64,000 bases of DNA from NCBI RefSeq assembly GCF_003018255.1, contig NZ_CP027440.1. One strand, 5' to 3'. The first letter of the stretch is position 1; every line of letters begins with the position of its first letter. A program made the position numbers and the translations under genes. Shown in pieces: positions 2,731-62,470 of this stretch. The notes under the pieces are model-generated. The model searched no databases. It was not told where the DNA came from and saw nothing but the letters and a program-made list of their open reading frames with translations. Origin of the DNA: Escherichia coli (GTDB lineage Bacteria; Pseudomonadota; Gammaproteobacteria; Enterobacterales; Enterobacteriaceae).

Positions 2731-3921
2731 TTACAGCACTGCCACAATCGCTTCGCACAGCGGAGCCATATTATCTGGTGTCATCCCGGCCACGTTTACG
2801 CGACCAGAAGCAACAGCATATACGCCAAACTCTTCGCGCAGACGCAGCACTTGTTCTTTTGTCAGGCCACTGAAGGAGAACATGCCGTTCTGTTTGATGA
2901 TAAAGCTGAAGTCGCGATTTGCGCCTTTTTCCTGCAGCGTATTGACGAACAACTGACGCATACGCTGAATACGCTGGCGCATATCAGTCAGTTCTTGTTC
3001 CCAAATCGCACGTAACGCATCGTTGCTCAGGATGGTGGCAACAACAGAAGCGCCGTGTGCTGGTGGGTTAGAGTAGTTAGCGCGAATCGCCGCTTTCATT
3101 TGGCTGAATGCGCGATCAATGGTTTCACTGTCAGCAGCAACCAGAGTACAAGCGCCAACACGCTCGTTGTACAGGCCAAAGTTTTTAGAGTAGGAACTGG
3201 CAACAATCAGCTCTTTATGCATAGCCGCGAAAGCGCGCAGTCCTTCAGCATCTTCTTCCAGACCACGGGCAAACCCCTGGTAAGCGAAGTCAAACAGCGG
3301 TAACCAGCCTTTCTCAACGGAAAGTTGTGCCAGTGTCTGCCATTGTTCCAGCGTAGGGTCGATACCGGTTGGGTTATGGCAGCAGCCATGGAACAGCACC
3401 ACGTCGCCAGCCTGAGCTTCGTTCAGGCTGTTAATCAGTGCATCGAAGTCAAGGGTGTGATTTTCCGCATCATAATAAGCGTATTCACGAACTTCCAGAC
3501 CTGCAGAGTTAAAGACGCTCTTATGGTTCGGCCAGCTTGGGTTGCTCACCCACACACGCTTAACGCTGGTATTTTTTGCCAGGAAATCGGCAGCCACGCG
3601 TAGTGCGCCAGTGCCACCCGGAGTCTGTGCCGTGCGAGCACGTTTGTCATTGATCAGGGCGCTACCTTTACCAAACAGCAGTTCCTGAGTGCAGCGACCA
3701 AATTCAGGGATGCCGTCAATGCCGAGGTAATTTTTGGTGGTTTCATTTTCGAGCAGATACTGTTCAGCCTTTTTCACACTGGTCAGTACCGGGGTTTTGC
3801 CCGTCTCATCTTTATAGACACCAATCCCGAGGTTAATTTTGCCGGGACGTTCATCGGCACGAAACAGATCGGCCAGGCCCAGAATCGGGTCGGCAGGAGC
3901 GGCGGTAATGTTCTCAAACAT
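2731..3921 (-). CDS. aspC: aspartate aminotransferase
   Basis: 396 aa; [17 protein letters not shown]-terminus and [12 protein letters not shown]-lysine motif. Confidence 0.97.
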
Positions 3922-4105: not shown

Positions 4106-5194
4106 TTAGAACTGGTAAACGATACCCACAGCAACGGTGTCGTCAGAACCTACGCCCAGTTTGTTGTCAGAATCGATCTGGTTGATGATGTAGTCAACAT
4201 AGGTGGACATGTTTTTGTTGAAGTAGTAGGTTGCGCCCACTTCAAAGTAGTTAACCAGATCAACATCACCGATACCTTCTACGTCTTTCGCTTTAGATTT
4301 GGTGTAAGCGATGGACGGACGCAGACCGAAATCGAACTGGTATTGCGCAACTAACAGAACGTCTTGCGTTTTGTTGGCGAAGCCGCTGATGTTTGTAAAT
4401 TTATTAGTGATCGGCGTAGCGTTACGGGTTTCACCGTAGTTCGCTGCCAGGTAGATGTTGTTCGCGTCATACTTCAGACCAGTAGCCCACTGTTCAGCTT
4501 TTTTACCGTTGCCAAGAGGTTGAGCTTCTTGCAGGTTGGTACGGTCAGCGGCGCCATAAGCACCAACGATACCAAAGCCTTCGTATTCGTAGCTGATAGA
4601 ACCGCCAACACCGTCGCCGTTAGAGCGGCGTGCAGTGTCACGCTCGTTTTTACCCAGGTACTGAACAGCGAAGTTCAGGCCATCAACCAGACCAAAGAAG
4701 TTGGAGTTACGATAGGTAGCAACGCCGCCAACACGACCAACGAAGAAGTCATCGCTGTATGCCGTGTCACCGCCAAACTCAGGCAGCATATCGGTGTAAC
4801 CCAGTGCATCATAAACCACACCGTAGTTACGGCCGTAATCGAAAGAACCAACGTCAGCGTATTTAAGACCCGCGAATGCCAGACGCGTTTTGTTACCAGT
4901 TTGAGCGTCAGCGCCTTCAGAGTTGTTACCCTGGAAGTTATATTCCCACTGACCATAACCGGTCAGATCGGAATTGATTTGAGTTTCCCCTTTAAAACCA
5001 AGACGGGCATAGGTCATGTCACCATTGCCACCGTAACTGTTTTCACCGTTACCCTTGGAGAAATAATGCAGACCGACAGCTTTACCGTACAGATCTACTT
5101 TGTTGCCATCTTTGTTATAGATTTCTGCAGCGTTTGCAGTACCTGCTACTAACAGAGCAGGGACGATCACTGCCAGAATATTGCGCTTCATCAT
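4106..5194 (-). CDS. ompF: outer membrane porin F
   Basis: 362 aa; [32 protein letters not shown] signal plus mature N-terminus; C-terminal ...VGIVYQF. Confidence 0.97.
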
Positions 5195-5338
5195 TATTTA
5201 TTACCCTCATGGTTTTTTTATGACACCTGCCACTGCCGTCAATAAGTTCTGTCAATAAAAATTTACGGAACTATTGATGAGAGTTTGGTGTCTTTATGTG
5301 TCTGCAGGCATCTTTCCATTCAAACTAACGTTTCGCTA

Positions 5339-5403
5339 CCGTGAAAGTGCTACAAAGATAAAGATTTGGTTTCAAAAAGAAAAAATATGTAACCAAAAGT
5401 AAA
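5339..5403 (-). promoter_or_regulatory. OmpR binding sites F1-F3 of the ompF promoter
   Basis: reverse complement reads tttacttttggttacatattttttctttttgaaaccaaatctttatctttgtagcactttcacgg, matching the OmpR-box array as I recall it. Confidence 0.65.
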
Positions 5404-5753
5404 ATTTAAGGAACTTTGTGAACATCGTCATATTTCCATATAGGCGTGATGATATTTACAGCAATTTTTATCTATTTATATGATTTCCTTATATTTAAAT
5501 TAACTAAACGGAAATTTTGTTTCTGATGGAAACTTTATCGACCTGGCACAAAATCCTCTTTCAGACATCCAGAATGCCAAAAAATAGTATGAAAATTGTG
5601 CTATCAGCTAAGAAAAAACTAATCCGCAATAAGAATGCGGGTTATTTTTTGTGCGTAAATGTTGCAATGTAATATTCCGTAACAGGATGATCGTTATGGC
5701 GGGGTTGCAAATAGATTGCTTGACTTAACAAACAGATAACTTGACAGAAAGGA

Positions 5754-5782
5754 TAAAAAAAGAGCCAGCGGGTGCTGGCTCT
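5754..5782 (-). terminator. rho-independent terminator of asnS
   Basis: stem agagccagc-ggg-tgctggctct; A-run on plus strand gives T-run on coding strand. Confidence 0.7.
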
Positions 5783-5795
5783 TGAAGACGCTAAA

Positions 5796-7196
5796 TTAGA
5801 AGCTGGCGTTACGCGGAGTACGTGGGAACGGAATCACATCACGCACGTTTTGCACACCAGTTACGTAAGCAATCAGGCGTTCAAAACCAAGACCGAAACC
5901 TGAATGCGGAACAGTACCGTAGCGACGCAGATCGCGATACCACCAGTAATCTTCTTTATTCAGGCCCATTTCCAGCATACGCTCGTCCAGCACGTCCAGA
6001 CGTTCTTCACGCTGGGAGCCACCAATGATCTCACCGATGCCCGGAGCCAGAACGTCCATAGCCGCAACGGTTTTACCGTCTTCGTTAAGGCGCATATAGA
6101 ACGCTTTAATATCTTTCGGATAGTTTTTAACCACTACCGGTGCTTTAAAGTGTTCTTCCGCCAGATAACGCTCATGCTCAGAAGAGAGATCGACGCCCCA
6201 GTAAACCGGGTTTTCAAACTTCCTGCCGCAGTTTTCGAGAATGGTCACTGCGTCGGTGTAATCCACCTGCGCGAAATCGGCCTCAATGAAGCGTTCCAGA
6301 CGTGAAACGGCATCTTTATCTACGCGTTCAGCGAAGAATTTCATGTCGTCAGCGCGTTCTTCGAGAACCGCTTTGAAGACATATTTCAGCATGGCTTCAG
6401 CCAGACCCGCGATATCGTTCAGGTTAGCAAACGCCACTTCCGGCTCCAGCATCCAGAATTCCGCCAGGTGACGGCTGGTGTTGGAGTTTTCAGCACGGAA
6501 AGTCGGGCCGAAGGTATAAATTTTGGACAATGCGCAAGCGTAGGTTTCGCCGTTCAACTGGCCAGATACGGTCAGGAAAGACTCTTTACCAAAGAAGTCT
6601 TTGTCGAAATCCACTTTGCCCTGATCGTTACGCGGCAGATTTTCCAGATCCAGCGTAGAAACACGGAACATTTCGCCTGCACCTTCGGTATCAGATGCGG
6701 TAATCAGTGGCGTTGAAACCCAGAAAAATCCCTGCTCGTTAAAGAAGCGATGCAGCGCCTGCGCCAGCGTATGGCGAACGCGCGCGACGGCACCAATCAG
6801 GTTTGTGCGCGGACGCAGGTGAGCGACTTCACGCAGATACTCAATGCTGTGGCGTTTTGCCGCCATCGGGTAAGTGTCTGGATCTTCAACCCAACCAGCA
6901 ACTTCAACCTTGCTGGCCTGAATTTCAAATTGTTGCCCCTGGCCCGGCGACGCCACGACTTTACCCGTCACAATGACCGAGCAGCCGGTGGTCAGACGCA
7001 AGACGTCTTCATTGTAATTGGGCAGAGAATTATTGATGACAGCCTGTACAGGATCAAAGCAGGAACCGTCATAAACGGCGAGGAAGGAGATGCCAGCTTT
7101 TGAATCTCGGCGGGTACGTACCCATCCGCGCACGGTGACTTCGCTGTCAACGGCTACGCGGCCCTGGAGTACGTCGGCTACAGGCACAACGCTCAT
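5796..7196 (-). CDS. asnS: asparaginyl-tRNA synthetase
   Basis: ORF track 5796..7241; start placed at internal ATG giving [20 protein letters not shown]...; class II aaRS sequence recognised. Confidence 0.95.
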
Positions 7197-11460: not shown

Positions 11461-11612
11461 ATGCCGGATGCGACGCTTGACGCGTCTTATCAGGCCTACA
11501 AGTCCGTTGAAAATGCTGGTTTTGTAGGCTGGATAAGGCGTTCACGCCGCATCCGGCAGCCGTGCCCAAATGCCTGATGCGACGCTTGACGCGTCTTATC
11601 AGGCCTACAATC
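11461..11612. repeat. REP/BIME cluster (three REP units, alternating orientation)
   Basis: gccggatgcgacgcttgacgcgtcttatcaggcctaca at 11463-11500 and near-identical copy at 11572-11610; inverted REP gtaggctggataaggcgttcacgccgcatccggcagc at 11524-11560. Confidence 0.8.
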
Positions 11613-15887: not shown

Positions 15888-16123
15888 ACTCTCTCCTTAT
15901 AACCAATTGTTCTTGTTTTGTTAACATTGATAACAATTCGGTCAGTCTGACAGAGGGCGTCCGCGAGTCGAAATGATTTATCTGAGGAAGAAAAGCCAAA
16001 AAAAGCATAAAAAAAGCGCAATAAGAAAACGTTTGCTATTTATTGCCGCAGGTCAATTCCCTTTTGGTCCGAACTCGCACATAATACGCCCCCGGTTTGC
16101 ACACCGGGAATCCAGGAGAGTTC

Positions 16124-17134
16124 ATGTACTACCCCTTCGTTCGTAAAGCCCTTTTCCAGCTCGATCCAGAGCGCGCTCATGAGTTTACTTTTCAGCAATT
16201 ACGCCGTATTACCGGAACGCCGTTTGAAGCACTGGTGCGGCAGAAAGTGCCTGCGAAACCTGTTAACTGCATGGGCCTGACGTTTAAAAATCCGCTTGGT
16301 CTGGCAGCCGGTCTTGATAAAGACGGGGAGTGCATTGACGCGTTAGGCGCGATGGGATTTGGATCGATCGAGATCGGTACCGTCACGCCACGTCCCCAGC
16401 CAGGTAATGACAAGCCGCGTCTCTTTCGTCTGGTAGATGCCGAAGGTTTGATCAACCGTATGGGCTTTAATAATCTTGGCGTTGATAACCTCGTAGAGAA
16501 CGTAAAAAAAGCCCATTATGACGGCGTTCTGGGTATTAACATCGGCAAAAATAAAGATACGCCGGTGGAGCAGGGTAAAGATGACTATCTGATTTGTATG
16601 GAAAAAATCTATGCCTATGCGGGATATATCGCCATCAATATTTCATCGCCAAATACCCCAGGATTACGCACACTGCAATATGGCGAAGCGCTGGATGATC
16701 TCTTAACCGCGATTAAAAATAAGCAAAATGATTTGCAAGCGATGCACCATAAATATGTGCCGATCGCAGTGAAGATCGCGCCGGATCTTTCTGAAGAAGA
16801 ATTGATCCAGGTTGCCGATAGTTTAGTTCGCCATAATATTGATGGCGTGATTGCAACCAATACCACGCTCGATCGTTCTCTGGTTCAGGGAATGAAAAAT
16901 TGTGATCAAACCGGTGGCTTAAGTGGTCGTCCGCTTCAGTTAAAAAGCACAGAAATTATTCGCCGCTTGTCACAGGAATTAAACGGTCGCTTACCGATCA
17001 TCGGTGTTGGCGGCATTGATTCGGTTATCGCTGCGCGTGAAAAGATTGCTGCGGGGGCCTCACTGGTGCAAATTTATTCTGGTTTTATTTTTAAAGGTCC
17101 GCCGCTGATTAAAGAAATCGTTACCCATATCTAA
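16124..17134 (+). CDS. pyrD: dihydroorotate dehydrogenase (quinone)
   Basis: ORF track 16097..17134; start at ATG 16124 giving [21 protein letters not shown]. Confidence 0.95.
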
Positions 17135-42995: not shown

Positions 42996-43083
42996 TGGCG
43001 GAAGCGCAGAGATTCGAACTCTGGAACCCTTTCGGGTCGCCGGTTTTCAAGACCGGTGCCTTCAACCGCTCGGCCACACTTCC
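42996..43083 (-). tRNA. serT: tRNA-Ser (anticodon UGA), 88 nt including encoded CCA
   Basis: minus strand reads GGAAGTGTGGCCGAGCGGTTGAAGGCACCGGTCTTGAAAACCGG...GGTTCGAATCTCTGCGCTTCCGCCA; long variable arm; anticodon loop CUUGAAA. Confidence 0.95.
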
Positions 43084-61773: not shown

Positions 61774-62058
61774 ACAAATTCCTTACTGAAAATACTGCGC
61801 TGCACTATACGGGGTTAATAAAATAAAGCCAGCGATATTTAAGACCGCCGGACGGCTAAAATAAAATTTGCTTAATCTCAATTATCATGCGTTAATAGCT
61901 GCGTCGGTTTGAAAGACAGACAGCATACAAAGTAGTTTACTAAAGCAGTTCTCATTATCAGGCATTATCCCCTTCTTTTGAGTCTCTCTCCTGAACACTA
62001 AGTAGTTTCTGTACTAAAGCCCTGTTTGCCGAAAGGCCCAAAATGAAGGAAGTAAAAT

Positions 62059-62271
62059 ATGTCTAATAAAATGACTGGTTTAGTAAAATGGTTTAACGCA
62101 GATAAAGGTTTTGGCTTTATCACTCCTGATGATGGCAGCAAAGACGTTTTCGTCCATTTCACCGCCATCCAGAGCAATGAATTCCGCACGCTGAACGAAA
62201 ATCAGAAAGTTGAATTTTCTATTGAGCAGGGGCAACGTGGTCCCGCGGCAGCGAACGTTGTTACGCTCTAA
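62059..62271 (+). CDS. cspG: cold shock protein CspG
   Basis: 70 aa; [23 protein letters not shown] (RNP1 motif). Confidence 0.95.
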
Positions 62272-62470
62272 GGTTGCCGTTATTACTCCACATCTCCATT
62301 TCCGCTGTCCATGTTGTCATGGTTCACAGTACCGCACATCGGCATTCGATGTGACGGAGCGAAATCCTTTAGGGGCAAAGTGTATTTTTTGTAAATCGAC
62401 GATGATCACCTTTGATAACGTCGCGCTGCAAATACGCACTGACCATGCGCCGCTGGATTTCACAAAATAA
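62237..62470 (+). CDS. ymcE: small Cys-rich protein YmcE; start codon uncertain (non-ATG)
   Basis: ORF track 62210..62470; contains ...[21 protein letters not shown]...; no in-frame ATG near 5' end, GTG at 62237 chosen. Confidence 0.5.

Follow-up and report, generated by a model that had tools for sequence, protein, structure and literature searches.

Positions 5195-5795 of the window (that is, of the whole 64-kb stretch of Escherichia coli DNA that was analyzed) make up the 601-bp spacer between asnS and ompF, which is bounded by the ompF start codon on one side (5192-5194, minus strand) and by the asnS stop codon on the other (5796-5798) and is part of a pncB-asnS-ompF-aspC gene order that, according to the open reading frame (ORF) list, resides entirely on the minus strand. 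Downstream of the spacer are the ompF coding sequence (4106-5194, 362 aa; Pfam Porin_1, E=2.4e-138) and aspC (2731-3921), and its upstream neighbors are asnS (5796-7196; ORF list, RefSeq and Pfam tRNA-synt_2, i.e., class II tRNA synthetase domains) and pncB (from 7365). The encoded OmpF is identical to its K-12 counterpart at 361/362 residues, with T269I being the single change, and the RefSeq annotation of both E. coli strain 104 and K-12 agrees with these flanking-gene calls and contains no features within the asnS-ompF spacer. The long noncoding gap between ompF and asnS described by the first-pass annotation is, thus, indeed one of 601 bp separating verified Porin_1 and tRNA-synt_2 genes, and its AT-richness, said to be especially pronounced at 5400-5560, is equally real: the G+C content is 34.1% for the spacer and 28% for the 5400-5560 segment vs. 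51.1% for the window, in which no other 601-bp stretch has a lower G+C content than the spacer.

Alignment to the characterized K-12 ompF promoter, which had been proposed as a check on the identity of the region, returned a match over the full length of the spacer (601/602 bp; K-12 MG1655 986,983-987,584), comprising 11 substitutions and one 1-nt indel at 98% identity; the locus is that of K-12 ompFp, and the length is nearly equal (601 vs. 602 bp). No base differs from K-12 in the four OmpR boxes F1-F4, the -35 and -10 hexamers, the MicF target or at the transcription start site, and all 12 differences fall outside F1-F4, the core promoter, the half-sites of a CRP-like site, the conserved core of a distal block (“block C”) and the MicF target. 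One of the substitutions is situated in the loop of the asnS terminator and another in the spacer of the CRP-like site, two (5641 and 5645) affect the upstream arm of a hairpin at 5620-5644, the minus-strand stem of which is weakened, one (5652) lies in the A-tract flanking the same hairpin, and the remaining ones are found in spacer DNA that has no assigned element.

The spacer was found in 5424/5426 complete E. coli genomes and is 100% identical to that of strain 104, a chicken isolate. An exact 90-mer covering F1-F3 and the promoter is carried by only 1607/5416 E. coli genomes, which implies that the OmpR boxes tolerate variation, and an exact 90-mer covering F4 and the hairpin by 1851/5423. 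A seven-strain alignment showed three variable positions in F1, two in F4b and a single one in F2b, and F3, the promoter hexamers and the MicF target were invariant; the ompF locus has, for that matter, served as a SNP marker of host source (PMC5007776). Comparison beyond the species relied on a pattern scan in which species-representative genomes were matched to the conserved sequence around the ribosome-binding site and the start codon, which returned 120 loci, and on a cross-species alignment of 78 species and the window (79 Enterobacteriaceae), in which the core promoter, F3b, F2 and F1b proved near-invariant.

The core promoter, read from the minus strand, consists of a weak -35 hexamer, TAGCGA (5333-5338), which matches TTGACA at 3/6 positions, is identical to K-12 and is conserved, and, at a distance of 17 bp, of an extended -10 element (5310-5318), also identical to K-12, in which the hexamer AAAGAT (5310-5315) is preceded by TG (5317-5318) and which is invariant in the 79 species. 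An 11-bp deletion just downstream of the -35 hexamer, removing AACGTTAGTTT from the -35/-10 spacer, was seen in one clinical isolate. A consensus promoter scan did not call the ompF promoter, as is to be expected of an activator-dependent one. In K-12, OmpR ChIP-exo has placed an ompF peak at 986,373-986,432 (older coordinates), centered at -87.5 (PMC5438342), and transferring this peak by alignment puts it at 5361-5420 of the window; the peak center and the K-12 alignment together make position 5303 on the minus strand the most likely ompF transcription start.

Relative to this start, three contiguous OmpR boxes occupy the minus strand as exact strings: F1 (TTTACTTTTGGTTACATATT, -100 to -81, 5384-5403), which lies in the transferred ChIP-exo peak, F2 (TTTTCTTTTTGAAACCAAAT, -80 to -61, 5364-5383), which lies in the peak as well and is conserved, and F3 (CTTTATCTTTGTAGCACTTT, -60 to -41, 5344-5363), which is identical to K-12 and whose 3' half GTAGCACTTT shows almost no variation in the 79 species. 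The search strings for F1-F4 were the known sequences of the boxes; the identity to K-12 over the segment comes from the alignment. An F1-F3 array had been placed on the minus strand at about 5339-5403, and the exact strings at 5344-5403 agree with that placement to within 5 bp. A tandem motif derived from OmpR ChIP-exo, GTTACATTTTGTTACAT (PMC5438342), allowing for up to three mismatches, has a single match in the 64-kb window, which is F1, when 0.2 matches per window would be expected. A weight matrix built from six ompC half-sites failed to set F1-F4 apart from the AT-rich background, with F3 and F4 scoring below background and F1 ranking 250th, and was rejected as a test for the boxes, the degeneracy of OmpR boxes being too great for such a matrix. 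The boxes are, therefore, recognizable by their identity to K-12 and not by motif strength. Of the scans for OmpR and IHF sites suggested in the first-pass annotation, the one with the ompC-based matrix did not single out F1-F4, the one with the ChIP-exo motif was positive for F1, and the exact IHF consensus WATCAANNNNTTR did not occur anywhere in the spacer. The arrangement resembles that of the ompC/micF region, where three contiguous 20-bp OmpR boxes (C1-C3) likewise stand upstream of a weak promoter; that region, however, is another locus with another sequence, has no distal repression box and shows an osmotic response opposite to that of ompF.

The distal repression site F4 (GTTACGGAATATTACATTGC, -380 to -361) was found on the minus strand at 5664-5683, again as an exact string identical to K-12, and the gap separating it from F1 is exactly 260 bp, which is also the distance given in the published description (PMC3050692). 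Here the earlier reading of 5400-5560 as the distal F4/IHF region has to be amended: an IHF-like block does lie in that segment (5471-5497), but F4 does not, being located some 100-280 bp further upstream, and the segment otherwise contains the CRP-like site (5417-5432) and poorly conserved spacer DNA. According to the accepted model, phosphorylated OmpR (OmpR-P) on F1-F2(-F3) activates ompF, and the weak F4 is filled at high OmpR-P, giving rise to a blocking loop (PMC3050692).

Could the proximal 200 bp or so (F1-F3, the promoter and the leader) be all that is functional, with the distal 400 bp or so being neutral or H-NS-bound filler in which F4 is present by chance? We consider this highly improbable. 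It would account for the poor conservation of much of 5500-5595 and 5690-5745, for the low score of F4 with a simple OmpR matrix, for the second half of F4, which varies both within E. coli and between species, and for the 300-bp spacer of Pantoea and Erwinia, as well as for Yersinia pestis being devoid of F4 (PMC3050692). In most genera of the Enterobacteriaceae, however, the asnS-ompF spacer measures about 590-615 bp, the distance from F4 to F1b stays at 286-291 bp in 75/79 species, and the GTTAC core of F4 (at the aligned position in 51/79 species) is conserved at fixed spacing along with block C and another distal block, “block B”. Moreover, it is to F4 that published genetic work ascribes repression at high osmolarity, and in Y. 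pestis, where F4 is missing, this repression is missing as well (PMC3050692), whereas in the window F4 stands at its K-12 position. The spacer of Pantoea and Erwinia, at about 300 bp, leaves no room for F4, in line with the report on Y. pestis (PMC3050692); in these two genera, block C directly follows the asnS stop codon and the asnS terminator is found between block C and the CRP-like site.

The spacing of the elements is strikingly rigid. The distance from block B to block C is 119-121 bp in 74/79 species, that from block C to the CRP-like site is 61 bp in 76/79, that from the CRP-like site to F1b is 29 bp in all 79, that from F1b to F3b is 40 bp in 78/79, and that from F3b to the -10 hexamer is 38 bp in all 79. 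The cross-species footprint, with its spacing fixed from -194 to the -10 hexamer and a spacer of about 600 bp in Enterobacteriaceae vs. about 300 bp in Erwiniaceae, lends modest support to the looping architecture.

Adjacent to F1, within a conserved block (“block D”, 5405-5436), lies a CRP-like site on the plus strand (TGTGA-ACATCG-TCATA, 5417-5432, centered at -121.5), a palindrome of the TGTGA-N6-TCACA type, the half-sites of which are kept in 72/79 species and the 6-bp spacer of which varies. The matching Y. pestis site (-131 to -109) has been footprinted by DNase with CRP-cAMP, adjoins the OmpR footprint there, and CRP activates ompF in that species (PMC3050693). The combination of an F1-F3 array with an adjacent CRP-type site is found at the same distance in both promoters (-131 to -109 vs. 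a center at -121.5). The site at 5417-5432 probably supplies a carbon-source input to ompF.

Further upstream, the phylogenetic footprint revealed the almost invariant block C (TTAAATATAAGGAAATCATATAAATAG, -194 to -168, 5471-5497, minus strand), which contains, on the plus strand at 5479-5491 (around -182), an IHF-like core, TATGATTTCCTTA, with two mismatches to the IHF consensus. The best relaxed IHF matches are weak, namely, this one and another with one mismatch at -68 to -56. Given the weak core match and an IHF footprint reported near -180 in K-12, block C is a candidate IHF-type site. Its conservation extends to Erwiniaceae, in which it sits within the asnS 3' end. Block B, in turn, is represented by the conserved heptamer AGCACAA (5597-5603, minus strand, about -300 to -294), likewise from the phylogenetic footprint. 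The heptamer bears some resemblance to the F3b half-site GTAGCAC.

Transcription from 5303 would yield a 109-nt ompF 5' leader (5195-5303, minus strand; 110 nt in K-12), the start of which is transferred from K-12 ChIP-exo and the sequence of which is almost invariant across the 79 species. Its predicted fold (-23.9 kcal/mol, z=-2.0) comprises a long stem-loop from +12 to +82 and, by the ribosome-binding site, a small hairpin, which agrees with the published description (PMC1489923). The first-pass annotation had the leader as a whole (about 5195-5300) as the target of the small RNA MicF; targeted it appears to be, but in the duplex predicted for nucleotides 1-33 of K-12 MicF, the pairing site (mRNA +93 to +120, 5184-5211, minus strand) takes up no more than the final 17 nt of the leader and the first 11 nt of the coding sequence, spanning the Shine-Dalgarno sequence GAGGG (5204-5208), the start codon (5192-5194) and the codons following it. 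With -27.1 kcal/mol vs. -12.2 +/- 2.8 kcal/mol for shuffled MicF (about 5 sd better), this site ranks first among the 1278 tiles of the window for MicF 1-33, yet three coding-sequence tiles come within 2 kcal/mol of it by means of G-U-rich pairing. These near-best tiles (in ssuB/ssuC and elsewhere) were dismissed as G-U-rich chance pairings, and, the energy margin being small, the case for MicF is built on a complementarity already known to be conserved (PMC1489923) and not on the energy rank: the conserved 13-mer described for the MicF 5' end (PMC1489923) pairs at 5184-5211. Full-length MicF was abandoned in favor of MicF 1-33 because its duplex energy is uninformative, shuffled MicF doing equally well (-32 +/- 6 kcal/mol, minimum -48.6). 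That MicF is encoded in trans, as had been stated, holds: the Rfam MicF family has no matches at its gathering threshold in the 64 kb, and K-12 micF is annotated at 2,313,084-2,313,176, about 1.3 Mb from ompF. Compared with the known MicF-ompF antisense pair, no difference of substance was seen: the 5' end of K-12 MicF can pair with the ribosome-binding site and start codon, and micF is unlinked to ompF.

At the upstream end of the spacer, terminator scanning identified an intrinsic terminator of asnS (5753-5783, minus strand), composed of a hairpin at 5760-5783 (a 10-bp stem with six G-C pairs and a 4-nt loop) and a T7 tail; its arms are conserved across species and its loop is variable. When both strands were scanned, a second structure was found at 5613-5653, where the hairpin at 5620-5644 with its flanking A-tract and T-tract resembles an intrinsic terminator on either strand. 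Its K-12 version is a perfect 10-bp stem, it is retained with compensatory changes in Salmonella and Kosakonia, and it has been lost in many genera. Polymorphism within the hairpin was considered as a guide to the strand under selection and discarded: one variant would be tolerated only on the plus strand and another only on the minus strand, and so no inference as to which RNA is selected can be drawn. No Rfam family was found in the spacer at the gathering and E-value thresholds, and the sub-threshold AbsR28 and Thr leader hits were set aside as terminator-like hairpins scoring far below their gathering scores.

A terminator-like structure on the plus strand, however, also raises the question of whether the spacer carries an independent plus-strand gene (a small RNA or a small protein) that part of the conservation would be serving instead of ompF. 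A tiling-array study does list a transcript opposite ompF/asnS in the spacer, named C0240 by Tjaden et al., as a putative small ORF (PMC3082872), and the plus strand contains a promoter-like TTTACA-18-TATGAT (10/12 matches, 5455-5484), the hairpin with a T6 tail (5620-5650) and ORFs at 5526-5672 (48 aa) and 5589-5672 (27 aa). The promoter-like match and the hairpin would bound an RNA of about 160 nt. Nevertheless, such a gene strikes us as distinctly unlikely: three promoter-like matches in the scanned 1.2 kb are exactly what shuffling leads one to expect (3.0), the candidate -35 is not conserved between genera, and neither are the start codons of the ORFs, both of which, moreover, extend beyond the plus-strand terminator. 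The small ORFs were rejected as conserved genes because their frames are interrupted in other E. coli strains, the 48-aa one being frameshifted by a 1-nt insertion in O157:H7 and the 27-aa one containing an early stop in K-12. The candidate matched no Pfam entries and no Rfam families, the fold of a 166-nt plus-strand RNA is unremarkable (z=-1.5), and in Pantoea and Erwinia, where block C comes right after asnS, a plus-strand promoter at block C would run into asnS antisense.

We regard it as almost certain that 5195-5795 represents the complete cis-regulatory region of ompF, most likely working as it does in K-12. The gene context, the identity to K-12, the positions of the elements, the complementarity to MicF and the conservation of both sequence and spacing across species are directly observed; as for the binding of proteins, the looping of the DNA and the control of ompF in this strain, we infer them from the published work on K-12 and Yersinia, along the following lines. 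Transcription would proceed from 5303 on the minus strand, driven by a weak, activator-dependent promoter (-35 TAGCGA, extended -10 TG-n-AAAGAT). At low osmolarity, phosphorylated OmpR would bind cooperatively to F1-F2-F3 (5403-5344, -100 to -41) and activate it, and at high OmpR-P, the weak F4 (5683-5664, -380 to -361) would be occupied as well, and repression would follow from a DNA loop that joins F4 to F1-F3. The bendable AT-rich DNA and an IHF-type bend near -180 would probably assist the formation of this loop, and the CRP-like site abutting F1 (centered at -121.5) would be a probable point of entry for carbon-source information. MicF, made elsewhere, would pair with 5184-5211 at the ribosome-binding site and thereby block the initiation of translation, and the asnS terminator (5760-5783) would shield the ompF region against transcription from upstream.

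The region is, in other words, the already known, textbook ompF control region, with every defined site as in K-12, and, the ompF promoter being among the most thoroughly studied in bacteria, it carries little weight as a discovery; the use of the analysis is mainly practical, lying in the anchoring of the window as E. coli DNA, in the exact coordinates provided for each element and in the corrected placement of F4. The first-pass reading of the region is correct except for where it put F4 and how much of the leader it had MicF pair with. Minor features outside this scheme are block B, the hairpin module further upstream and the factor that would act at block C; in the footprint, two or three conserved distal blocks stand without an assigned factor. 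That the distal half (-200 to -400) might contain cis elements going beyond the F4/IHF loop model, namely, AGCACAA, the A-tract/TTATTGCG hairpin module at 5613-5653 and block C, appears to be unlikely, albeit conceivable; the rigid spacing of these distal elements could reflect a new protein-binding scaffold, or an insulator/terminator parting asnS read-through and C0240 from the ompF promoter.

A last and minor point concerns the only length difference between this leader and that of K-12, i.e., a run of seven A residues (A7; 5213-5219, minus strand) in this strain vs. A8 in K-12. In the alignments, the five other E. coli strains compared also have A8, and A7 is, judging by the strains compared, the minor allele; the length of the run differs between species as well. 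The difference is situated just 5' of the MicF-paired stretch, and its predicted effect on the full-length MicF duplex is minimal (-39.5 kcal/mol for A7 vs. -39.4 kcal/mol for A8).

Comparing window positions 5314-5403 and 5606-5695 with 5,426 E. coli genomes reveals that the OmpR boxes of ompF vary within this species: the exact F1-F3/promoter 90-mer of the window is present in only about 30% of E. coli genomes, the polymorphic bases being located in box F1 and in the half-sites F2b and F4b, and part of the asnS-ompF spacer is missing from a few genomes (e.g., one match, H30, with a coverage of only 31%). The core promoter itself differs in E. coli strain 98198, a urine isolate, where 11 bp (AACGTTAGTTT; aligning to window about 5321-5331) have been lost between the -35 and -10 hexamers of ompF, and the ompF coding sequence is likewise shorter (1074 vs. 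1089 nt); this strain is plausibly a clinical variant of the porin-down type. The same core promoter is where alignment transfer places (at window about 5320) a low-level peak of a minor sigma factor holoenzyme, seen by genomic SELEX within the ompF-asnS spacer at the old K-12 coordinate 986,332 (PMC5493296).

Downstream of the promoter, the leader carries a run of seven A residues (5213-5219, minus strand), whereas K-12 and five other compared E. coli strains have eight; the run separates the main leader stem-loop from the ribosome-binding site and is located just 5' of the stretch paired by the MicF sRNA. Apart from the substitution T269I (NKFTNTSGF in K-12, NKFTNISGF here; codon 269 at 4383-4385), the encoded OmpF is identical to its K-12 counterpart.

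Across species, as judged from loci L004-L123, the spacer measures about 590-615 bp in most Enterobacteriaceae vs. about 300 bp in Pantoea/Erwinia, where the ompF upstream region contains the asnS terminator, positioned between the conserved IHF-like block (block C) and the CRP-like site. Spacers of 1214 bp in Salmonella arizonae and of about 720-790 bp at several other loci suggest insertions. Almost invariant across the 79 species is the heptamer AGCACAA (5597-5603, minus strand), whose distance to block C is 119-121 bp in 74 of them, and which is similar to the F3b half-site GTAGCAC; we know of no factor assigned to this heptamer.

Between F4 and F1, a hairpin flanked by A- and T-tracts (5613-5653, both strands) looks like a bidirectional intrinsic terminator; its stem is a perfect 10 bp in K-12, while in the window one arm carries two changes, and the hairpin is retained with compensatory changes in Salmonella and Kosakonia and absent from many genera. 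A feature encoded opposite to ompF and asnS, "C0240", has been described in a tiling-array study as either a transcript or a putative small ORF (PMC3082872). At window about 5455-5672, the plus strand holds a promoter-like site (5455-5484) and two ORFs (5526-5672 and 5589-5672). Frameshifts or truncations disrupt these ORFs in other E. coli strains, nor are they conserved between genera. Elsewhere in the window, gathering-level Rfam matches comprise a cspA thermoregulator (61903-62325, plus strand), a PyrD leader (16056-16129, plus strand), the REP-derived nucleoid-associated RNA naRNA4 (11527-11605, plus strand) and a tRNA (42999-43083, minus strand).
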